Origin: Escherichia coli
GTDB taxonomy: Bacteria > Pseudomonadota > Gammaproteobacteria > Enterobacterales > Enterobacteriaceae
Reading direction: 5' to 3' (one strand)
Length of the DNA stretch: 64,000 nucleotides
NCBI RefSeq assembly: GCF_024223415.1
Contig: NZ_CP100500.1
Position numbers and translations under genes: made by a program
The notes under the pieces: model-generated
The model's database searches: none
Told to the model about the DNA's origin: nothing
Seen by the model: only the letters and a program-made list of their open reading frames with translations
In this document: positions 2,691-53,515 of the stretch, piece after piece
How the letters are laid out: each line of letters starts with the position of its first letter
Numbering within the stretch: position 1 is the first letter of the stretch

Positions 2691-3013
2691 GCAATCACCA
2701 TGTACACACAAAAAAACCGCTTGCAACAACAAACCGGAACAGGGTACGCTTCCCATGCACCTCATAAAACGGGTGTCGGGATTCTCAACCTGCTGACAAA
2801 CGAAGCGCACAACCGCGCCAGCGGTTTTTTTGTGCGTACTGTATTGCCACGTCTTTTTCGCATCAGAATTATGGTGGGGCGTACGGGGCCGACTTCGGTC
2901 GGGCCGGTTTCTTCGTTTGCCGGTGTTGAGAACCCCGTACGTCTCGCCACCCCGAGATTCTCAACTCTGGTTGGTGAGTATCCAAAAACTCACAAACGAA
3001 GAGGCCAAACACC

Positions 3014-3304: not shown

Positions 3305-3673
3305 ATGATTCTGGCTGACGATTTTCTGGAGTACCTGAACAACACCGAGCGCGACCTGTACGCGCGCGTTCTCACCCGTTACGAGAAATACAAACTTTCG
3401 CTGCCAGAACATCAACTCCGCGAAGGCGATATCGACATTGAAGGGCGCTACATCGTCAGGCACCTCATAGCGGGCTACGGCATCTGGCGTGTCACCGGAC
3501 GTGAGCATTCATTGCTGACCATCTGCCAGAGTCCGTCCGGCGTGATAACGGAGATCGTCGCTGATAGTCTGCGACTCACCCATCACAGCGCCACCCCGGA
3601 AGAAACGCTGGCAGAAACCCAGCGTCTGTGTCGCGTCATTGCCAACGCCGCCCTCCGCGCAGACAGGAGGTAA
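3305..3673 (+). CDS. hypothetical prophage early protein (122 aa) immediately upstream of replication gene
   Basis: GGGAGG Shine-Dalgarno; ends 3 nt before gene A start. Confidence 0.5.
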   Translation: MILADDFLEYLNNTERDLYARVLTRYEKYKLSLPEHQLREGDIDIEGRYIVRHLIAGYGIWRVTGREHSLLTICQSPSGVITEIVADSLRLTHHSATPEETLAETQRLCRVIANAALRADRR

Positions 3674-9376: not shown

Positions 9377-10432
9377 TCAGGATATGGGCCGGGTGTCTAA
9401 CAGTGCGTAAGGGTTAAAACGGATCACCTCTTCGCCCAGCCAGTCGTTGACGTGTTTCATTGCTTCCATGACGGGCATCAGTTCGTTAATGGCAAACACA
9501 CGGGCTGCCTTCTCCACATCCCCGAATGACCCCTTCTCACCCGGCATGGCCCCCATCAGCTGAGGTGGCACGCGGTGCACAGCCAGCACGTCATCACGCG
9601 ATGCGGCCTTGACGTTCATGAACTCATCCTTTGCGGTGATTTGCTGAAACGGCAAAATCTGTACGCCATCCTTACCACCTCCCGCCGCGTGGATGAGCAG
9701 ATTTTTAAACGCCCCGCCACCACGCGCGCTTTGCAGCGTTTCCCGCAGTTTTTCCATGCTTTCACGGTCAACCTGCGCCGCACCGATGTAGACAATACAG
9801 CCCGCGTGTGAGCCGTTATCGTAGTAGAGCTTGCGGAAGATATCGGCGGAATGTGACAGGCTGGCAGACAGCAGGCCGCCCAGGTAATCCGGCATCCCGT
9901 AAATCTCCTGGTTGATATCAGGATTCATCAGGTGGCATATCGTCCCCTCACGAAAGCGGTACTCTTCCTGTCCTTCCTGTATATACCACCATGATTTCAT
10001 ATCGCTGCCACGTCGCATGTATTTCGCCAGCGCCCGGCGCAGGGCCAGCGGTTCGCCAAGCATGTTGCGCCGCAGCTCAAGACAGGCATTACCGAACACA
10101 AACCAGTCCATCGCCACCCCGGCGAACTCCTGGCGGGACAGCAGAGGATGTGGAATATAGCAGCCCAGCAGCACATTACGTTTGAAGCTGAGCGCCGACT
10201 GGTGCCAGGACGTCTGGCGGGCAGCCCGTGCCAGTCCGTACCAGTCAACGGGCGTTTCAAACCACCGCCCGTTGTCGGCGCAGTACATGCTGTCCAGCAG
10301 GTCGGCCCCTGACAGCCGGTAAGGTCCTTCAAACGTGAAGGCACTCAGTGTCGGGTCGCTTCGCAGGGAATCCGCAAGGCTGCCCTGCGCTGCGCGGGCG
10401 TTCGTACGTCGTTGTTTATTTTTTCTGCTCAT
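9377..10432 (-). CDS. portal protein (P2 gpQ-like, 351 aa)
   Basis: Size and position immediately downstream of the terminase ATPase gene on the same strand, as in the P2 PQ operon. Confidence 0.75.
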   Translation of the reverse strand: MSRKNKQRRTNARAAQGSLADSLRSDPTLSAFTFEGPYRLSGADLLDSMYCADNGRWFETPVDWYGLARAARQTSWHQSALSFKRNVLLGCYIPHPLLSRQEFAGVAMDWFVFGNACLELRRNMLGEPLALRRALAKYMRRGSDMKSWWYIQEGQEEYRFREGTICHLMNPDINQEIYGMPDYLGGLLSASLSHSADIFRKLYYDNGSHAGCIVYIGAAQVDRESMEKLRETLQSARGGGAFKNLLIHAAGGGKDGVQILPFQQITAKDEFMNVKAASRDDVLAVHRVPPQLMGAMPGEKGSFGDVEKAARVFAINELMPVMEAMKHVNDWLGEEVIRFNPYALLDTRPIS

Positions 10433-31099: not shown

Positions 31100-31142
31100 A
31101 ATTAAAATGAGCCATCTCCACTCAGCCAGATAAGGAGAAGCC

Positions 31143-31394
31143 ATGTTCCGTTGTCCCCTGTGCGGTGCATCCGCACGTATCCGCACCAGTCGCAATGAAA
31201 ATGATTCAGGCACAGTTCGCCTGAAGTACTACCAGTGCAATAACCTCGAATGCGGGATCGGCTTTACCACACTGGAGGGTTTTAACAAATTCACATCAAA
31301 ACGCGCCCCGTCGCCGCAGGGTACAGAGCGGATACCGTGGGAAGATTTTCCGGGATCTCACAGGGGGAATGCTCAGATGAATCTTGATATTTAA
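31143..31394 (+). CDS. ogr: Ogr/Delta-family zinc-finger late transcription activator
   Basis: MFRCPLCGASARIRTSR...YYQCNNLECGIGF carries the CxxC...CxxC finger and N-terminal similarity to P2 Ogr. Confidence 0.85.
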   Translation: MFRCPLCGASARIRTSRNENDSGTVRLKYYQCNNLECGIGFTTLEGFNKFTSKRAPSPQGTERIPWEDFPGSHRGNAQMNLDI

Positions 31395-31399
31395 GAACA

Positions 31400-32405
31400 A
31401 TAATCAGGTTGAGAGGACATCATAAGGCAAGTAGATTAACGGCAGATACTTTCCCGCAACCACGGGCAAGTATTTAATTATCCATGATGAAATATGACCT
31501 AAATTGTTTTTTGCCCGCCGGAAAGCGGGCATTTTTTTATTCTTTTGTGGTTATGGGGTCATCAGGAACCACGTGCAGATTATATTTTTGTTTTTTTGGC
31601 GTTCCTCCGGCAGCAACGAGTTCATCAATAAGACACTGACACGCCTGAACATCCCGGGCATGTCTTAGTTTCACCTTTATTGATTTAACCTTATCCTCAC
31701 CGGAGGAGAAATGCAGTTCAATCTCAATATCGTTTCTTCGGAACAATCTCATACGCCCCCCTGAATATATCAGAAATGCTAGTATCGAAAAATGAGAAAA
31801 CAGTTAGACAGGAGAAACATATTAACACAAATCATTTATACCTATAGATGAAATTATAATTTCATTCATGAATATGATAGATAACTATATTGTGAACAAA
31901 ATGAAAAATGGCTAAATTAAAAATGGGCATGGAGGAATGCCTCGTAATCAGTAATACATGATCCATACTTCCTTGTTTTGCCCGCCGGAAAGCGGGCATT
32001 TTTTTGGCGGTTACCATCGCCTCACCTTCCTGGTTCACACAAAGCAACCCTGATTTTCCATGAAAACTTCAGGGTTGAGCCAAAAGCACAAAGACAGTAG
32101 ATTAACCAAGGGTACCCGCCACCTGCCAACAGGAACGGTATCCAGTACGTATTAATGACTGACAATTCACATTGCTGTTTTGCCCGCCAGAAGGTGGGCA
32201 TTTTTTTGGCAGTTATCATGGACGCACCTTCATGACACATATTAAGCAGACCTGATTTTTCCATGAAAAATTCATGGTTGAGACAAAAGCACAAAAACAG
32301 TAGATTAACCACGGGTGCCTGCCACCTGACAACAGGAAGGGGTGTCCATTATCCATGATATACAAACGAAAAGTCTTGTCTTTTGCCCGCCGTTGCGCGG
32401 GCTTT
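31400..32405 (+). repeat. array of four related modules, each a promoter-like TTGAGA/TTGTGA-N17-TAGATT/TAAATT plus an intrinsic terminator (GCCCGCC...GCGGGC + T-run)
   Basis: Terminator hairpins at about 31512, 31978, 32181 and 32384; units 32000-32200 and 32200-32405 are about 200-bp paralogues sharing sequence with the unit just after ogr. Confidence 0.6.
31537..31752 (-). CDS. hypothetical small protein (71 aa) inside the repeat/att region
   Basis: ORF with weak G-rich Shine-Dalgarno; may be a remnant. Confidence 0.25.
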   Translation of the reverse strand: MRLFRRNDIEIELHFSSGEDKVKSIKVKLRHARDVQACQCLIDELVAAGGTPKKQKYNLHVVPDDPITTKE

Positions 32406-32440
32406 TTTTTTGCCACCCTCACCAGTGAGGGTACCATCAT

Positions 32441-32659
32441 TCAGAGGCGCGTAAGCCACCCGGCGTTAACATCCTGCCCGTCAACCCTGACCGCAGAGTC
32501 TGAACGGCAGGCACCGGAAGCAGTACCAAAAACACCTCTGACAAGTTCCGCCACCTTCCCGATATCATCAGGCGCCACATTCCTCACCTCGACAGTGATC
32601 CGTGGCGTACCATCATCGTTAACAAGCGTGGCTTTAAGGCTGGTACGACGGGCAAATAA
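32441..32659 (-). CDS. hypothetical small protein (72 aa)
   Basis: GGGAGGGGG Shine-Dalgarno before ATG; followed by a bidirectional terminator around 32722-32755. Confidence 0.35.
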   Translation of the reverse strand, partial: LFARRTSLKATLVNDDGTPRITVEVRNVAPDDIGKVAELVRGVFGTASGACRSDSAVRVDGQDVNAGWLTRL

Positions 32660-32819
32660 CATCAACACCCCCTCCCTTCGGTTCGTTGCACTGGCAGCAC
32701 GATACCACCAGGAAAAAGAAAAGCCCACAACGTCAGGATTGCGGGCTTTTTTTCTTCAAAAATGGACACTACGTGGACACTGATTAAATAATCCTTTCTT
32801 AATCAGACTGTTAAAATGC

Positions 32820-32850
32820 TTGACCTTCCCCTTGCTGGAAGGTTTAACCT
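32820..32850 (+). promoter_or_regulatory. copA promoter with CueR (MerR-type) operator dyad
   Basis: CTTGACCTTCCCCTTGCTGGAAGGTTTAACC: -35 TTGACC, inverted repeat CCTTCC...GGAAGG in a long spacer, as known for PcopA. Confidence 0.7.
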
Positions 32851-32889
32851 TTATCACAGCCAGTCAAAACTGTCTTAAAGGAGTGTTTT

Positions 32890-35394
32890 ATGTCACAAAC
32901 TATCGACCTGACCCTGGACGGCCTGTCCTGCGGTCACTGCGTTAAACGCGTGAAAGAAAGTCTCGAACAGCGCCCGGATGTGGAACAAGCGGATGTGTCT
33001 ATCACTGAAGCGCACGTTACCGGGACTGCCAGTGCAGAACAGCTGATCGAAACCATCAAACAAGCGGGTTATGACGCATCTGTAAGCCACCCAAAGGCTA
33101 AACCGCTGGCGGAGTCATCAATCCCGTCGGAAGCACTGACAGCGGTTTCTGAGGCGCTTCCGGCAGCGACCGCCGATGACGATGACAGCCAGCAGTTGCT
33201 GCTGAGCGGCATGAGCTGCGCCAGCTGTGTCACCCGCGTACAAAATGCGTTGCAAAGCGTACCGGGCGTCACTCAGGCACGGGTAAACCTGGCGGAGCGT
33301 ACTGCGCTGGTGATGGGCAGTGCCTCCCCACAAGATTTAGTGCAGGCGGTGGAAAAAGCGGGCTACGGTGCGGAAGCGATTGAAGATGACGCGAAACGCC
33401 GCGAGCGCCAGCAAGAAACCGCCGTCGCTACGATGAAGCGCTTCCGCTGGCAGGCAATTGTTGCATTGGCTGTGGGTATCCCGGTAATGGTCTGGGGGAT
33501 GATCGGCGATAACATGATGGTCACCGCTGACAACCGCAGCCTGTGGTTGGTTATCGGCCTGATAACCCTGGCAGTGATGGTTTTCGCCGGCGGCCATTTT
33601 TACCGCAGTGCATGGAAAAGCCTGCTGAACGGTGCAGCGACGATGGATACGCTGGTGGCGCTGGGTACTGGCGTGGCGTGGCTCTATTCGATGAGCGTCA
33701 ACCTGTGGCCGCAATGGTTCCCGATGGAAGCGCGACATCTTTATTACGAAGCCAGCGCGATGATTATCGGTCTGATTAATCTCGGCCATATGCTGGAAGC
33801 GCGCGCACGTCAGCGTTCTTCAAAGGCGCTGGAGAAATTACTCGATTTAACTCCGCCGACGGCGCGCCTGGTTACTGACGAAGGTGAAAAAAGCGTGCCG
33901 CTGGCGGAAGTTCAGCCAGGCATGCTACTGCGCCTGACGACGGGCGACCGCGTGCCAGTAGATGGCGAGATTACCCAGGGCGAAGCATGGCTGGATGAAG
34001 CGATGCTGACGGGCGAACCTATTCCGCAGCAAAAAGGCGAAGGCGATAGCGTCCATGCCGGTACAGTGGTACAGGACGGTAGCGTGCTGTTTCGCGCCAG
34101 TGCGGTTGGTAGCCATACCACGCTATCAAGGATCATTCGTATGGTGCGCCAGGCCCAGAGCAGTAAGCCAGAAATCGGTCAGCTGGCGGATAAAATCTCA
34201 GCCGTATTTGTGCCGGTAGTAGTGGTTATTGCGCTTGTCAGTGCGGCAATCTGGTATTTCTTTGGTCCGGCACCGCAGATTGTCTATACCCTGGTGATTG
34301 CCACCACGGTGCTGATTATTGCCTGCCCGTGTGCGCTGGGGCTGGCGACGCCGATGTCGATTATTTCCGGCGTCGGGCGGGCGGCTGAGTTTGGCGTGCT
34401 GGTGCGGGACGCCGACGCGCTGCAACGCGCCAGTACACTCGATACCGTCGTGTTCGATAAAACCGGGACGCTGACCGAAGGGAAGCCGCAGGTTGTCGCA
34501 GTGAAAACATTTGCTGATTTTGACGAAGCGCAGGCGCTGCGTCTGGCGGCGGCACTGGAACAAGGTTCCAGCCATCCGCTGGCACGGGCGATCCTCGATA
34601 AAGCAAGCGATATGCAGCTGCCGCAGGTCAACGGTTTCCGCACATTGCGCGGGCTGGGCGTGAGCGGTGAAGCTGAAGGTCATGCGTTATTGCTGGGCAA
34701 TCAGGCGCTGTTAAATGACCAGCAAGTTGATACTAAAGCGATTGAAGCAGATATTTCAGCTCAGGCATCGCAAGGGGCAACGCCTGTGCTGCTGGCGGTT
34801 GACGGGAAAGCGGTAGCCCTGCTGGCTGTACGCGATCCGTTGCGTAGTGATAGCGTGGCGGCGCTGCAACGTCTGCATAAAGCGGGATATCGTCTGGTGA
34901 TGTTGACCGGGGATAACCCAACCACCGCCAATGCGATCGCCAAAGAAGCAGGGATTGATGAGGTGATCGCCGGGGTGCTGCCGGACGGTAAAGCCGAAGC
35001 GATTAAACGCCTGCAAAGTGAAGGACGTCAGGTGGCAATGGTGGGCGACGGCATTAACGACGCGCCAGCGCTGGCTCAGGCGGATGTCGGCATTGCGATG
35101 GGTGGCGGCAGTGATGTTGCTATTGAAACCGCGGCGATTACCCTGATGCGCCATAGCCTGATGGGTGTTGCGGATGCGCTCGCTATTTCCCGCGCAACGC
35201 TGCGCAACATGAAGCAGAACCTGCTCGGCGCGTTTATCTACAACAGTATCGGTATTCCGGTTGCCGCCGGTATTTTGTGGCCGTTTACTGGAACACTGCT
35301 TAACCCGGTGGTTGCCGGAGCGGCAATGGCGCTCTCGTCGATTACCGTAGTGAGTAACGCCAACCGGTTGCTGCGGTTTAAACCGAAGGAATAA
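32890..35394 (+). CDS. copA: Cu(I)-translocating P-type ATPase
   Basis: 834-aa ORF with two N-terminal CxxC metal-binding motifs (GLSCGHC, GMSCASC), CPC and DKTGT motifs. Confidence 0.95.
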
Positions 35395-36955: not shown

Positions 36956-37125
36956 GTAAGCGTCGCATCAGGCAATGGTACTCGGATGCCGGATGCGGCG
37001 TGAACGCCTTATCCGGCCTACGGTTCAGGCACAGGTTTGTAGGCCTGATAAGACGCGTAAGCGTCGCATCAGGCAATGGTGCTCGGATGCCGGATGCGGC
37101 GTGAACGCCTTATCCGGCCTACGAG
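36956..37125. repeat. REP (BIME) cluster, right side of IS insertion
   Basis: Repeated GCCGGATGCGGCGTGAACGCCTTATCCGGCCTAC units. Confidence 0.6.
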
Positions 37126-37623: not shown

Positions 37624-38418
37624 ATGGATCTGTTGTACCGGGTAAAAACGCTTTGGGCCGCGCTGCGCGGTAATCATTACTCCTGGCCTGCCATCGATAT
37701 CACCCTCCCCGGCAATCGCCATTTTCATCTGATTGGCAGTATTCATATGGGTAGCCACGATATGGCTCCCCTGCCCGCCCGTTTGCTCAAAAAGCTCAAA
37801 AACGCCGATGCGCTGATCGTCGAGGCGGATGTTTCCACCAACGATACGCCTTTTGCTAATTTGCCTGCCTGCGAGGCGCTGGAAGAGCGCATTAGCGAGG
37901 AGCAACTCCAAAAACTGCAGCACATTAGCCAGGAGATGGGCATTTCTCCCTCACTCTTTTCTACCCAACCGCTGTGGCAAATCGCGATGGTTCTTCAGGC
38001 GACGCAGGCACAAAAACTGGGGCTGCGGGCAGAATACGGTATCGATTACCAGCTATTGCAGGCGGCGAAGCAACAACATAAACCCGTGATTGAACTGGAA
38101 GGGGCGGAAAACCAGATTGCCATGTTGCTCCAGCTCCCTGACAAAGGACTGGCGCTGCTGGACGATACGCTGACCCACTGGCATACCAACGCACGGTTGC
38201 TGCAACAAATGATGAGCTGGTGGCTGAATGCGCCGCCGCAAAATAATGAAATAACGCTGCCCAATACGTTCAGTCAGTCGCTGTACGATGTGCTGATGCA
38301 TCAGCGAAATCTCGCCTGGCGGGATAAATTACGCGCCATGCCGCCGGGGCGATATGTGGTCGCGGTCGGTGCACTACACCTGTATGGAGAAGGGAATTTG
38401 CCGCAAATGTTGCGCTAA
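37624..38418 (+). CDS. ybaP: TraB-family protein
   Basis: 264-aa ORF in conserved K-12 position. Confidence 0.85.
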   Translation: MDLLYRVKTLWAALRGNHYSWPAIDITLPGNRHFHLIGSIHMGSHDMAPLPARLLKKLKNADALIVEADVSTNDTPFANLPACEALEERISEEQLQKLQHISQEMGISPSLFSTQPLWQIAMVLQATQAQKLGLRAEYGIDYQLLQAAKQQHKPVIELEGAENQIAMLLQLPDKGLALLDDTLTHWHTNARLLQQMMSWWLNAPPQNNEITLPNTFSQSLYDVLMHQRNLAWRDKLRAMPPGRYVVAVGALHLYGEGNLPQMLR

Positions 38419-38500
38419 AAAAATGGCCAATATCGCTATTGGCCCGTCAAAGAGGAATTTCATTTTTTTATTATTATGCCGTCACTTTAAGCGACGGTGT
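38417..38500 (-). ncRNA. chiX: ChiX (MicM/SroB) small RNA
   Basis: Minus-strand sequence ACACCGTCGCTTAAAGTGACGGCATAATAATAAAAAAATGAAATTCCTCTTTGACGGGCCAATAGCGATATTGGCCATTTTTTT in the ybaP-ybaK intergenic region matches recalled ChiX with terminator. Confidence 0.65.
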
Positions 38501-44142: not shown

Positions 44143-44180
44143 ACGGTGGTTGCCGGATGTAAAATATGAAAAATATGTAG

Positions 44181-44265
44181 GCATGATAAGACGCGCCAGC
44201 GTCGCATCAGGCATCGAGATGCCAAATGCCAGATGCGGCGTGAACGCCTTATCTGGCCTACGAAC
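44181..44265. repeat. REP (BIME) element
   Basis: GCCAGATGCGGCGTGAACGCCTTATCTGGCCTAC REP consensus. Confidence 0.6.
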
Positions 44266-51577: not shown

Positions 51578-53515
51578 TCAAATGGGGCGGATACTTTCTT
51601 CATCCAGCTCCGCATCGAAAAACCGACGCAGGGTCTGAATATTATTATCCGCAATAATGGACTCGCGCGCCTGCGCAAGTTTTTCTTCGTATATCGCCTG
51701 ACGCCACTCCAGCGGCGTACGCACCGCGGGATTATCATCTTCAACGATAGTCAGTTCAACCGTTGAACCTTTTAACATGCTCAACGCTTCAGCCAGTTTT
51801 TGCTGTGCACCGCGGTTGTTCAAATGCCGCTGAGAGGAGCGCAAATGCAGACATACTGCGTTGTCGCTCTCCTCTTTCCAGGCATTTAACGCCACCTGTT
51901 CGACCAGTTTTGGTAGCGAAAGTTGGCTCACCTGTGCCGCCCACGGGTCGCGCTCAATGGCTTCTGCCGCTAGCTTCGCCGCCAGTTCCGGCGTTTTTTC
52001 ATGTTCCAGCGCTTTTTTCAGCGCCTTCGGCGTGGCGACCACTTCTTTTTGCTGTATCACCGGAGTGGTCGCCTTCCAGCGATACGCTTCTTTTTTGGCT
52101 GGCGCTTTTTCCAGCGCCGATGGCACCGGACGCGCCTGAACGCGATCGGTGACCGAAGCCAGTCTTTCCAGCGCAGCGTTATTCACCGGCCGCGCGCGGG
52201 TAGCGGCTGCCGGTTCACTCTTTTTTGCTTTGGTTGCTCCCTGCACGCGCTGCAACTGCTGGCGCGCCGCCAGCACCTGGCTGGTGGTTTCCGGGAGCGG
52301 TACAGTCGGTGCCTGCTGCGGCGCTGATTGCGGTTGCGGTTGCGGCGGCACCTGGGTTGGCGTCATTACTGCCGTTGGCGCGACGGGTGCAAAGGACTGG
52401 CGTGGCACTTCTGGCTCAGGCAGCGGCATACGCGGATGGAACGCCAGCGCGCGCAGCAGCGTCATCTCAACGCCCATGCGGCGGTCCGGCGCATACGGTA
52501 ATTCTTTGCGACCAATCAACAGCGTCTGATAGTAAAGCTGAATATCCGTCGGCGGTATGGTGCGCGCCAGTTCACGCATCCGCAGCTCGATGGCGGCCAT
52601 GTCGTTGCCAAGTGCAGCAGGCGAAAGTTGTACCATCGCAATACGATGCAACAGGCCGAGCATTTCCACCAGCAACGCTTCCCACTCGATACCACGGGCA
52701 GCGGCTTCATTAATCAGCGCCATTACGCGCTCGCCGTTGGCCTCGACCATCGCTTCAACCAGCGACAGCGCCTGATCGTCGTCAAGCGTACCCAGCATCG
52801 CACTGACCGCCTGGGTTGAAACCTGGCCGTCACCGCTGGCAATCGCCTGGTCGGTCAGACTTAAGGCATCTCGCAGGCTGCCTTCAGCGGCGCGCGCCAG
52901 CAATTGCAGCGCCCGCGGCTCGTGAGCGATATGTTCTTCATTGAGGATGTGCTCAAGTTGATGGCGAATTTGCTCGACATCCAGCGCCTTGAGATGAAAT
53001 TGCAAACAGCGCGACAAAATCGTCACCGGCAATTTCTGTGGATCGGTCGTCGCCAGCAGAAACTTAACGTGCTCCGGCGGCTCTTCAAGAGTTTTTAACA
53101 GTGCGTTAAAGCTGTGGCGCGACAGCATATGCACTTCGTCGATGAGATAAACTTTGAAACGACCACGCGCCGGAGCGTACTGGACGTTATCCAGCAGGTC
53201 GCGAGTGTCTTCAACTTTGGTGCGCGAGGCGGCGTCGATTTCAATCAGATCGACAAAGCGCCCCTGCTCGATTTCACGACAGTTATCGCACACGCCGCAC
53301 GGCGTCGCGGTAATGCCGGTTTCGCAGTTTAGCCCCTTCGCCAGCAGTCGGGCGATAGAGGTTTTTCCGACGCCACGGGTACCGGAAAAAAGATAAGCAT
53401 GATGAATACGCCCTAACGACAAGCCGTTCGCCAGTGCGGTCAGCACATGTTCCTGGCCGACGACGTCAGCAAAGGTTTGTGGGCGCCATTTTCGGGCTAA
53501 GACCTGATAACTCAT
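51578..53515 (-). CDS. dnaX: DNA polymerase III subunits tau/gamma
   Basis: AAA+ ATPase N-terminus (GTRGVGKTS); contains the A_AAA_AAG frameshift site. Confidence 0.95.
   Translation of the reverse strand: MSYQVLARKWRPQTFADVVGQEHVLTALANGLSLGRIHHAYLFSGTRGVGKTSIARLLAKGLNCETGITATPCGVCDNCREIEQGRFVDLIEIDAASRTKVEDTRDLLDNVQYAPARGRFKVYLIDEVHMLSRHSFNALLKTLEEPPEHVKFLLATTDPQKLPVTILSRCLQFHLKALDVEQIRHQLEHILNEEHIAHEPRALQLLARAAEGSLRDALSLTDQAIASGDGQVSTQAVSAMLGTLDDDQALSLVEAMVEANGERVMALINEAAARGIEWEALLVEMLGLLHRIAMVQLSPAALGNDMAAIELRMRELARTIPPTDIQLYYQTLLIGRKELPYAPDRRMGVEMTLLRALAFHPRMPLPEPEVPRQSFAPVAPTAVMTPTQVPPQPQPQSAPQQAPTVPLPETTSQVLAARQQLQRVQGATKAKKSEPAAATRARPVNNAALERLASVTDRVQARPVPSALEKAPAKKEAYRWKATTPVIQQKEVVATPKALKKALEHEKTPELAAKLAAEAIERDPWAAQVSQLSLPKLVEQVALNAWKEESDNAVCLHLRSSQRHLNNRGAQQKLAEALSMLKGSTVELTIVEDDNPAVRTPLEWRQAIYEEKLAQARESIIADNNIQTLRRFFDAELDEESIRPI
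52220..52226 (-). other. dnaX: dnaX programmed -1 ribosomal frameshift heptamer (A_AAA_AAG) producing gamma
   Basis: Plus-strand CTTTTTT at 52220-52226 corresponds to mRNA A AAA AAG at ...ATKAKKSEP... Confidence 0.7.

Follow-up and report, generated by a model that had tools for sequence, protein, structure and literature searches.

An array of four candidate small RNA genes between ogr and the copA-promoter attachment site of a P2-like prophage of Escherichia coli

The window, a 64-kb stretch of Escherichia coli DNA, carries the right end of a P2-like prophage. Between ogr and the attachment site in the copA promoter lie four short promoter-plus-terminator cassettes, all on the plus strand (Table 1). 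Each of these units has a sigma-70-like promoter followed, 88-107 nt on, by one of four near-identical terminators. Units 1, 3 and 4 make up one sub-family, type A, and unit 2 represents a second, type B. Units 3 and 4 are tandem 203-bp paralogues with 80-89% identity and are related to the unit directly after ogr, in agreement with the paralogous units of about 200 bp described in an earlier note on this DNA. That note also had all four units closed by the same intrinsic terminator. The hairpins were indeed located in every unit, within a 30-nt repeat (TTTTGCCCGCC-N7-GGGC-N-TTTTTT) of which the region holds four copies with 83-100% identity. Of the promoters that it listed, TTGTGA-N17-TAAATT was found in unit 2 (31890-31918), and TTGAGA-N17-TAGATT, assigned to three units, stands in units 1 and 4 (31409-31437 and 32278-32306), the -35 box of unit 3 being TTGAGC, one base different. 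When the whole 64-kb window was searched with a covariance model derived from units 1, 3 and 4, the model matched these units with 85, 90.6 and 99.8 bits, respectively. It also recovered unit 2 (38.6 bits, E about 1e-5) and gave no further match in the window.

Table 1. Features between ogr and the right attachment site, with positions in the window; RNAs are predictions
Feature	Position	Strand	Description
ogr	31143..31394	+	late-gene activator, last core gene of the P2-like prophage; RefSeq: ogr/Delta-like zinc finger protein
Unit 1 (type A)	31409-31538	+	-35 TTGAGA 31409-31414; -10 TAGATT 31432-31437
Unit 1 predicted RNA	~31443-31538	+	~95 nt; 5' hairpin; single-stranded AUUAUCCAUGAU motif; terminator hairpin 31512-31531; U7 tail
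ORF71	31537..31752	-	orphan 71-aa protein WP_001236182.1; convergent on unit 1
Perfect 18-bp palindrome ATGAAATTATAATTTCAT	31848..31865		between divergent ORF71 and unit 2
Unit 2 (type B)	31890-32005	+	-35 TTGTGA 31890-31895; -10 TAAATT 31913-31918
Unit 2 predicted RNA	~31925-32005	+	~81 nt; terminator hairpin 31979-31998; U7 tail
Imperfect palindrome	32048-32074		directly upstream of unit 3 -35 box
Unit 3 (type A)	32075-32207	+	-35 TTGAGC 32075-32080; -10 TAGATT 32098-32103
Unit 3 predicted RNA	~32110-32207	+	~98 nt; terminator hairpin 32181-32200
Unit 4 (type A)	32278-32411	+	-35 TTGAGA 32278-32283; -10 TAGATT 32301-32306
Unit 4 predicted RNA	~32313-32411	+	~99 nt; terminator hairpin 32385-32402; U9 tail
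ORF74	32441..32662	-	orphan small protein WP_029400554.1; strong Shine-Dalgarno; convergent on unit 4
Terminator-like hairpin	32719..32750		inverted repeat with T-rich runs on both strands; between ORF74 and attP P' arm
Two direct TGGACAC repeats, 11 bp apart	32763-32780	+	putative Int arm-type sites of P' arm
att core at attR	32819-32838	+	CTTGACCTTCCCCTTGCTGG; spans copA-promoter -35 box and left half of CueR operator; chromosome begins here

The terminator hairpins of all four units are preceded by TTTT and followed by 7-9 T. Terminator-like sites number nine in the region against 2.3 +/- 1.6 in shuffled sequence. For promoter-like sites (six, with 3.0 +/- 1.8 expected) the count alone is not significant. 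What exceeds chance is that a terminator follows every promoter, and that the same pairing is kept in relatives. Every array that we found, in the window, in prophages at ihfA, serS and zapB, on three IMG/VR contigs and on five metagenome contigs, repeats the 88-107 nt arrangement. These arrays contain two to eight units each and 14 distinct unit sequences overall, a small diversity from one E. coli phage lineage.

Between copies, the promoter hexamers are 89% identical and the spacers 50%. Only 3 of 12 columns vary in the hexamers compared with 15 of 17 in the spacers (Fisher p = 0.0013), and the invariant positions are TTG and TA..TT. Given this conservation of hexamers over a diverged spacer, the promoter looks to be under selection. 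The apparent conservation could be inflated by kinship or by gene conversion among the repeats. Agreement of the unit promoters with the consensus is limited to 9 of 12 positions, and an extended -10 is absent. In the terminators the loop varies, and the TTTT, the GCCCGCC left arm, the GGGC right arm and the T-run are all kept. The 5' arm is better conserved than the 3' arm, for which hairpin function alone gives no account. Hfq-dependent trans-acting sRNAs of enterobacteria are marked by an own promoter and by a Rho-independent terminator with an upstream U-rich tract and a tail of six or more U; this signature is present in all units, with TTTT, a hairpin and T7-9. We saw no conserved antisense (Sok-like) promoter within the units, the one minus-strand match (9/12, in unit 4) not being kept elsewhere by eye.

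The right end of the prophage was placed by comparing attB of K-12, attL of strain GF60 and attR of the window. K-12-type homology begins at 32819 in 5422 genomes, and the att core lies 410 bp to the right of the array. The earlier note had offered the array as a possible current attR plus remnants of earlier integrations, and proposed that the core be located by comparison with the empty site and that attL be found and aligned. The mapping speaks against this reading: the core is in the copA promoter, the GF60 attL shares only the 20-bp CTTGACCTTCCCCTTGCTGG with attR, outside the array, and the array travels with the phage. A broader version of the idea, in which successive integrations at this locus would have left behind the unit terminators as 3' ends of their former targets (sRNAs or gene terminators), draws on the habits of the family. 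Terminators and sRNA 3' ends serve P2-family phages as attB, as with P2 itself at the 3' end of cyaR. At the serS site the core (CCTGCGGGCGCTTTT) corresponds to the 3' half of the serS terminator, and the terminator of ihfA adjoins the end of the ihfA-type prophage. The likeness is one of relatives that integrate at terminators, whereas the core in the window lies in a promoter and the units are not att-related. The unit terminators (GCCCGCC-N7-GGGC) have nothing in common with CTTGACCTTCCCCTTGCTGG or CCTGCGGGCGCTTTT. At copA and serS, which were mapped independently, the array falls within the excisable prophage. The same or related arrays also occur in prophages at ihfA and zapB (att cores were mapped at copA and serS only), and neither a unit nor a unit terminator was found in the prophage-free chromosomes of the E. 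coli set.

By analogy with P2-family attP sites, we take the TGGACAC repeats for putative Int arm-type sites of the P' arm; the serS-type attR has similar repeats, and so does attL, beside int. Intact repeats are found in the window only at this position, and none flanks a unit. A true fossil P' arm is present within the larger array of a serS-type relative, L004 (positions 3380-3500 of that locus), so that accretion of old right ends does occur in relatives. The stretch 31753-31890 of the window aligns to this fossil arm with a score of 31, reached by 1 of 500 shuffles, a weak resemblance at 31826-31853; direct similarity of the same stretch to the real attR was looked for, and there was none. 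The window would hold at most a faint trace of an old right end, at 31826-31853, and an origin of the units as fossil attachment sites seems to us very improbable. We also rejected the 203-bp unit as a decayed ogr 3' end followed by unit 1, given that the spacers are no more like the ogr 3' end than expected by chance.

Units 3 and 4 contain the 31-codon basic ORFs reported in the earlier note (32060-32155 and 32263-32358). The ORFs exist, but the evidence argues against coding. Both begin upstream of the -35 box. Differences between copies fall on codon positions 1, 2 and 3 without third-position bias (e.g., 9/9/4 and 13/15/10), and among the paralogues one has a premature stop, others read past the stop and frameshift variants occur. 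To judge from this pattern, the ORFs are by-products of DNA conservation, not genes. The tandem repeats, close to hok and hicAB, do recall type I toxin-antitoxin loci, in which case the units might encode the basic peptide or, on the antisense strand, a hydrophobic peptide as in Sib/Ibs repeats. However, no conserved ORF of at least 10 codons is present on either strand across the 14 unit variants, none is hydrophobic, and peptides from the units have no PHROG match. We regard small-protein or toxin genes as the least credible explanation of the array, and an extremely improbable one.

The predicted RNAs have more in common than their terminators. A 5' hairpin is predicted in most units that were folded, with 7-8 outer pairs in five of seven. 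Fold z-scores against shuffles range from -0.7 to -3.4 (unit 1, -3.4; unit 4 is weak, at -0.7). In a structure-fitted alignment of 13 distinct sequences, 93% of the 5'-hairpin cells pair, compared with 30-53% in slid registers. Two-sided changes were seen in seven hairpin pairs versus 2.3 in shuffles, and 0 of 500 shuffles reach seven, in an alignment that was itself fitted to the structure. With a plain MAFFT alignment of seven related sequences, RNAalifold gave double changes in two pairs and a slightly positive (unfavourable) covariation term. Type A units share a conserved central motif, UAUC(C/A)AUGA, with AAUCAGUAAU as the type B counterpart. Within the window, a search for a pairing target of the motif found complement matches in the units themselves only.

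The orphan genes of the interval lie on the opposite strand to the units. ORF71, which overlaps the T-run of the unit 1 terminator with its stop codon, matches PHROG 14142 (function unknown, E = 5e-12) and has no Pfam, NCBIfam or PADLOC match. Of its close homologues, those of near-full length are either labelled E. coli or without a name, and a search of representatives adds weak, partial matches only. ORF74 has no family match in NCBIfam, PADLOC or PHROG, and its four homologues found likewise have E. coli names or none. The two proteins show no detectable relationship to each other. We discarded P0014 as a divergent ORF74 homologue: the serS-site prophage loci in question have serS, ftsK and D split into fragments, and were read as error-prone assemblies. 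The perfect palindrome upstream of ORF71 and unit 2 keeps its arms in two paralogous copies in L004 and looks like an operator.

The minus-strand cargo genes, ORF71 and ORF74 here and hicBA in relatives, stop either at a unit terminator or no more than about 30 nt from one. The ogr transcript must end at the terminator of unit 1. With four strong unidirectional terminators packed into 1 kb just past the late genes, the array could be seen as a stack of transcription insulators that protects attP/int, the convergent cargo and the copA promoter of the host against late D-ogr read-through, its promoter boxes being incidental or inherited from hok. The terminator is also the most invariant part of the unit. 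However, one or two terminators would suffice for this purpose, and the conservation of -35 and -10 over a diverged spacer, the conserved 5' hairpin and the central motif would all be left unexplained. We consider this account unlikely.

A clue to the origin of the units comes from P88-like phages (Xuanwuvirus), which have a hok/mok/sok cassette, annotated as 'MokW-like host killing', in the same slot directly after ogr. Unit 1 occupies the position of the hok promoter in these phages, and a hok-type promoter and 5' (tac) leader sequence is present in type A units. The cassette's TTGCCG-N17-TAGATT is homologous to the unit TTGAGA-N17-TAGATT, and so are the first ~35 nt of its transcript, GGGUGCCUU and then a hairpin. 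Local alignments of type A with the hok promoter and leader score 28-29, with GGGTGCCTT common to both; shuffle maxima are 25-27, and 0 of 300 shuffles reach the observed scores. One hok copy in a relative closes with a unit-type terminator, and the unit 4 terminator is orthologous to the terminator that follows a hok pseudogene in L004, at 5337. On these alignments, the type A promoter and first ~35 nt is homologous to, and apparently derived from, a hok leader. The units themselves do not qualify as hok/sok loci. They are without the Hok ORF (PF01848), the mok ORF, the Sok target region and the 3' fbi element, and measure ~80-100 nt, compared with roughly 400 nt for the cassette in L004. The Rfam sok model matches the true hok leaders of L004 (46-48 bits) but not the units.

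The family is narrowly distributed. Of 5426 complete E. coli genomes, 30 carry units, at 124 places in total, and every place inspected was the ogr-att interval of this prophage lineage; the 5396 genomes that lack the phage have none. Carrier strains include GF60, CS5L, CM2, Ch1 and 24A16CRGN010. The array is 100% identical over 31100-32410 in prophages at ihfA, and those at serS and zapB have related arrays. Among 50,697 phage genome records only ogr was matched, and 72,556 plasmid records gave no match to the units. In a search with one genome per species (100,044 species), the terminator pattern returned 34 loci with a single match each and no arrays. The six Enterobacterales matches that were read have unrelated upstream sequence and were rejected; among them are a conserved Rahnella locus (four matches) and RyhB of Intestinirhabdus (one match). 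Scans of viral and metagenome sequences brought up the few unit variants already described, with no added diversity. Such confinement does not fit REP/BIME or similar dispersed repeats, and a match to a known repetitive element, which the earlier note had allowed for, was not the case.

Both the kinship with hok and the narrow distribution bear on the possibility that the units are genomic debris, that is, functionless, ORF-less relics of hok-type cassettes and duplicated prophage right ends, transcribed or not, that look conserved through recency or homogenisation. In relatives, the interval gathers junk: the serS array has the fossil P' arm, decayed ORF71 copies and a hok pseudogene with a unit-type terminator. 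Recombination between terminators is evident. Breakpoints of relatives coincide with terminator ends (32410 is the exact switch to hicBA cargo in the ihfA type), and a hok pseudogene has been lost between two terminators. However, all 14 variants retain TTG, TA..TT and the hairpin, although the copies, with differences of 10-50% outside hexamers and terminator stems, are not of very recent origin. The 5' hairpin, moreover, appears to be maintained through two-sided changes between the sub-families. Decay has affected the neighbours in the same arrays: the ORF71 copies of the serS array have suffered truncation or frameshifts and the second hok copy there is without its -10 box and start codon, while all eight units retain promoter and terminator. 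Debris is a possibility that we take seriously, at well below even odds.

That protein genes and a hok copy have decayed beside intact units supports the reading of the units as genes for small RNAs. Together with the conservation pattern and the apparent structure covariation, it makes an sRNA family the best supported explanation, by inference, and of the earlier note's two options, att remnants or a prophage-associated sRNA family, the second is the better supported. We suspect, with a probability of roughly 0.55, that each of the four units is an autonomous gene for a small non-coding RNA in an accessory interval of a P88/Xuanwuvirus-like P2-family prophage. They do not belong to a family in Rfam 15. 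Both a search of the whole window at the gathering threshold and a permissive one of 31100-32950 gave only sub-threshold terminator matches, so that the comparison with sRNA databases proposed in the earlier note brought no family to its gathering score. Within the units, the best scores (gathering score in parentheses) were RprA 24.1 bits (70), Hrs1 24 (56.4), RyhB 20.8 (55) and AgvB 20.2 (56). The related array of L004 gave terminator-only matches to Hrs1 (24.6 bits), RyhB (24.4 bits) and AgvB (23.2 bits). Across the window and L004, AgvB ranged over 17.7-23 bits and RyhB over 17.3-24.4 bits, both below their gathering scores. In the literature we found no paper with the terminator sequence and none combining P2-like phages, ogr and sRNA. 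The accessible part of a 2026 preprint on P2 hotspots lists no ogr-att hotspot and does not contain the word 'terminator'.

If the units are sRNA genes, their promoters, TTG(A/T)G(A/C)-N17-TA(G/A)ATT, would probably be read by sigma-70 RNA polymerase, and transcription would end ~80-100 nt on, where an intrinsic terminator works strictly on the plus strand. Such an RNA would begin with a 5' hairpin of ~35 nt, followed by an AU-rich single-stranded stretch with the conserved central motif and by a copy-specific segment of 20-25 nt. It would close with a U-rich tract, a GC hairpin and a U7-9 tail, the architecture of the enterobacterial Hfq-binding module, and we infer that Hfq may bind there. 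The RNA would most likely act by base-pairing, with the central segment as its pairing region, on targets in trans, in cis or both. The unit terminators cannot stop minus-strand transcription, and cargo mRNAs must for this reason run antisense into the units. The invariant terminators may in addition be recombination points for the gain and loss of units and cargo. A fuller proposal is that the units are a new, ORF-less family of phage sRNAs derived from a hok leader, which regulate either the cargo, as antisense RNAs, or host mRNAs, and whose TTTTGCCCGCC terminators provide standardised cassette boundaries, joints for swapping toxin-antitoxin and other cargo between ogr and attP. This we advance as speculation, and the chances are against it as a whole.

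The predicted RNAs resemble known prophage sRNAs, such as the AgvB/AsxR anti-sRNAs of Stx phages, DicF and IsrK, in being short non-coding genes of accessory regions with Rho-independent terminators and long U tails, their independent transcription being a prediction. They differ in having no sequence or structure membership in those families. Like the moron cassettes of temperate phages, the units are self-contained promoter-plus-terminator modules with a mosaic presence in a variable interval, beside hicAB and hok. Unlike morons, their 'gene' is ~100 nt of non-coding sequence, they form paralogous arrays of two to eight, and their terminators are recombination junctions. The chromosomal Sib/QUAD and Ldr/Rdl sRNA loci of E. 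coli are also tandem 150-200 bp repeats, each with a promoter and a terminator. The units differ from these in the lack of an opposite-strand toxin ORF, and in being confined to one phage lineage rather than chromosomal.

From the perspective of the phage, the analysis corrects the prophage end. Integration takes place into the CueR-controlled copA promoter, which the phage rebuilds, and this is relevant to studies of the copper response in carriers. The ogr-attP interval of P88-like phages can be considered a third, RNA-rich cargo region, with hicAB, hok and orphan small proteins in relatives, and with repeated terminators as the sites of module exchange. If transcribed, the units would add an undescribed and narrowly distributed sRNA family to the few prophage-borne riboregulators, and one with a traceable origin: a type I toxin cassette minus its toxin, of which the promoter and leader were retained.

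The four units between ogr and copA in this P2-like prophage are, we suspect, small non-coding RNA genes of the phage accessory region, each with its own promoter and predicted to act by base-pairing; we give this reading a probability of about 0.55. Every unit has a promoter upstream of a terminator, at a distance of 88-107 nt, and the T-run after each hairpin is 7-9 T long. The 30-nt terminator repeat occurs in four copies (83-100% identity), which confirms the four units with a shared terminator described in an earlier note. That note gave three promoters as TTGAGA-N17-TAGATT and one as TTGTGA-N17-TAAATT, which is correct at 31409, 32278 and 31890 and incorrect at 32075 (TTGAGC). The paralogy of about 200 bp that it saw in the last two units was borne out, units 3 and 4 being tandem paralogues (203 bp, 80-89% identity). 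A covariance model of units 1, 3 and 4, with their relatives included, found unit 2 at 38.6 bits and nothing further in the 64-kb window. The units thus number exactly four and fall into two sub-families, type A (1, 3 and 4) and type B (unit 2).

Features of the ogr-copA region (window coordinates)
Feature	Position	Strand	Remarks
ogr	31143-31394	+	left border of array region
Promoter, unit 1	31409	+	TTGAGA-N17-TAGATT, sigma-70-like
Terminator hairpin, unit 1	31512-31531	+	TTTT before, T-run after
ORF71	31537-31752	-	stop codon overlaps unit 1 T-run; PHROG 14142 (function unassigned)
Promoter, unit 2	31890	+	TTGTGA-N17-TAAATT, sigma-70-like
Terminator hairpin, unit 2	31979-31998	+	TTTT before, T-run after
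Promoter, unit 3	32075	+	TTGAGC-N17-TAGATT, sigma-70-like
Terminator hairpin, unit 3	32181-32200	+	TTTT before, T-run after
Promoter, unit 4	32278	+	TTGAGA-N17-TAGATT, sigma-70-like
Terminator hairpin, unit 4	32385-32402	+	TTTT before, T-run after
ORF74	32441-32662	-	ends 30 nt from unit 4
copA	32890-35394	+	right border of array region

An imperfect palindrome lies directly 5' of the -35 box of unit 3 (32048-32074, CCCTGATTTTCCATGAAAACTTCAGGG); that of unit 4 (32251-32277) is in another register, CCATGAA-AAA-TTCATGG, and unit 1 has none. Each T-run is followed by a further short hairpin, such as CCCTCAC-CA-GTGAGGG at ~32416-32431. A perfect 18-bp palindrome between the divergent ORF71 and unit 2 (ATGAAATTATAATTTCAT, 31848-31865) may be an operator; its arms, ATGAAA...TTTCAT, are retained with different centres in two paralogous copies in L004, the locus of the serS-site prophage of strain ECCNB12-2.

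The earlier note had also suggested that the array could be attR plus fossil attachment sites. Comparison of the empty K-12 site, the left prophage junction in strain GF60 and the window gave a common att core of 20 bp, CTTGACCTTCCCCTTGCTGG, at 32819-32838 (L006 10258-10277 and L005 2500-2520 in the compared loci), shared by attR and by attL, which was found in GF60. Of 5426 complete E. coli genomes, 5422 have a match to the right-hand region that starts at 32819, and only five of the 5426 have a prophage at this site. Within the copA promoter, the core corresponds to the -35 box plus the CueR operator's left half, and integration is into the promoter itself. At attR an intact copA promoter is rebuilt, with all sequence upstream of -35 replaced by phage DNA; at attL half a promoter is left, pointing into int. 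Two TGGACAC direct repeats at 32763-32780, similar to repeats adjoining int at attL, look like Int arm sites. Given this junction and these repeats, the entire array and the 410 bp that follow it on the right belong to the phage, between ogr and attP. Both att arms carry direct TGGACA(C/T) repeats at a distance of 11 bp (32763-32780; L006 ~10367-10386; L004 5700-5730; L107 9660-9683). The copA-type and serS-type integrases are 51% identical, with arm repeats in common and unrelated cores, which suggests a conserved arm-binding domain with swapped core specificity.

Segment 31100-32410 is identical in prophages adjoining ihfA, and related arrays of 6-8 units each are present in prophages at serS and zapB. 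Mapping of attB, attL and attR at serS gave the core CCTGCGGGCGCTTTT, which makes up the serS terminator's 3' half; the entire array is inside that prophage too. Units were found at 124 places in 30 of the 5426 complete E. coli genomes, in none that lacks the phage, and had no match in plasmid records or 50,697 phage records. The carriers are mostly poultry and human isolates, none of them a standard laboratory strain. The terminator pattern, searched in 100,044 species (one genome each), gave 34 single-match loci, and the six from Enterobacterales that were inspected have unrelated upstream sequence. Because the arrays lie inside prophages at several sites and no unit was found in an E. coli genome lacking the phage, attR plus fossil att sites is refuted for the window. 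We hold fossil att sites to be very improbable, although a fossil P' arm is clearly present in the serS-type array (L004 3380-3500), its score of 43 being matched by none of 500 shuffles. It lies against a truncated copy of ORF71, so in relatives the ogr-att interval does collect old right ends; the window has at most a faint trace, at 31826-31853.

The ogr-attR interval of the serS prophage (L004 2058-5816, 3.7 kb) contains eight units, an orphan terminator, an intact hok, a hok pseudogene and the fossil arm, and is a layered record of earlier right-end modules. In the ihfA prophage (L002 5310-5910) the hicBA toxin-antitoxin pair takes the place of ORF74 after unit 4, with the hicB stop codon precisely where the unit 4 terminator ends. 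The ihfA-type phage variant ends beside the ihfA terminator, and its arm sequences differ.

The conserved 31-codon basic ORF of the earlier note is not coding: its start precedes the -35 box, substitutions hit the first two codon positions as often as the third, and stops differ between copies. Among ORFs of at least 10 codons on both strands of 14 variants, none was conserved and none hydrophobic. That the units are peptide genes is scarcely credible.

Signs of constraint are found in the control elements. Among nine distinct promoters, identity is 89% in the hexamers and 50% in the 17-nt spacers, with 3 of 12 columns varying in the former versus 15 of 17 in the latter (p = 0.0013). TTG and TA..TT, the positions most important for sigma-70, do not vary. 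Terminator arms and T-run are invariant and the loop is variable. The ogr-copA region has nine terminator-like sites versus 2.3 expected from shuffles. A pure terminator stack we consider improbable.

Counted from ~7 nt past the -10 box as far as the T-run, the predicted RNAs have lengths of 81-99 nt. Seven units were folded, and for five of them, units 1, 3 and 4 included, the minimum-energy fold begins with a 5' hairpin (7-8 outer pairs and usually four inner ones), continues with a largely unpaired middle and closes with the terminator. The type B RNAs that were folded likewise have a stem at the 5' end, though it differs from this hairpin and extends further. Fold z-scores against shuffles range from -0.7 to -3.4. 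When 13 distinct sequences were aligned by fitting to the model, 93% of cells paired (30-53% in slid registers), and seven pairs changed on both sides versus 2.3 in shuffles (0 of 500 reach 7), a count that favours the structure on which this alignment was built; RNAalifold on a plain seven-sequence alignment gave two-sided changes in only two pairs. We regard the structure as supported but not proven. The type A middle has a conserved UAUC(C/A)AUGA followed by 20-25 nt wholly different between copies, and type B has a looser counterpart there (AAUCAGUAAU in unit 2). The Hfq-binding module usual in enterobacterial sRNAs presumably has its counterpart in the U-rich tract, the GC hairpin and the long U tail.

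An sRNA-database search, run on Rfam, found no family for the units, and the literature gave no paper with the terminator sequence and none joining P2-like, ogr and sRNA. Unit 3 (32165-32176) and its L004 paralogues (3909, 4558) carry CACAUUGCU just 5' of the terminator, identical to part of the RyhB core (compare Intestinirhabdus RyhB in L029). This run, probably a coincidence, accounts for weak Rfam RyhB matches, which score 17.3-20.8 bits in the window and reach 24.4 in L004. Elsewhere, the prophage early region has adjacent isrK (59.8 bits) and C4 antisense RNA (79.2 bits) at 2757-2954 (+), both above the Rfam gathering score, a pair resembling the P1/P7-type antisense immunity element, here in a P2-family phage. 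The RNA elements right of the prophage (37042-37119, 44180-44258, 38417-38500 and 52181-52245; two REP-type naRNA4, sroB and a dnaX frameshift element) are ordinary chromosomal ones.

ORF71 and ORF74 are orphan small proteins with good Shine-Dalgarno sequences, each convergent on a unit terminator. Neither matched NCBIfam or PADLOC, nor did ORF71 match Pfam, and their close homologues have E. coli names or no name. Since the minus strand of the unit terminators lacks a U-tract, the mRNAs of ORF71 and ORF74 should run antisense into the units. If the units are RNA genes, each would be transcribed from its own promoter and would base-pair in cis with cargo transcripts that converge on it, in trans by way of its variable middle, or both; unit 1 probably also terminates the ogr transcript, and the repeated terminators probably act as recombination joints.

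As to origin, P88-like phages (Xuanwuvirus) have a hok/mok type I toxin cassette directly after ogr. The type A promoter and RNA start can be aligned with the promoter of this cassette, TTGCCG-N17-TAGATT, and the opening ~35 nt of its mRNA (GCGCGGGUGCCUUUCGG...); local scores are 28-29, shuffle maxima are 25-27, and none of 300 shuffles reached the observed scores. A weak resemblance is also seen for the type B promoter. Rfam's sok model starts GGGUGCUU and takes in the hok leader; it scores 46-48 bits on true hok leaders in L004 and does not match the units, so the units share only the promoter and first hairpin with hok. Unlike the hok cassette, they lack toxin, mok, Sok target region and fbi element. 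That the units are inert debris of hok cassettes we think unlikely. The serS array offers an internal control: of three ORF71 copies one is intact, one truncated and one frameshifted, and neither the -10 box nor the ATG survives in the second hok copy, whereas promoter and terminator are intact in all eight units. The decayed hok copy ends in a unit-type terminator orthologous to that of window unit 4, which indicates that the window lineage lost that hok copy by recombination between two unit terminators; in ihfA-type phages the change to hicBA cargo falls exactly at the end of that terminator.

The units are, as far as their sequences indicate, narrowly distributed, prophage-borne, sRNA-like moron cassettes, and their apparent derivation from a toxin leader is the interesting side of the family.
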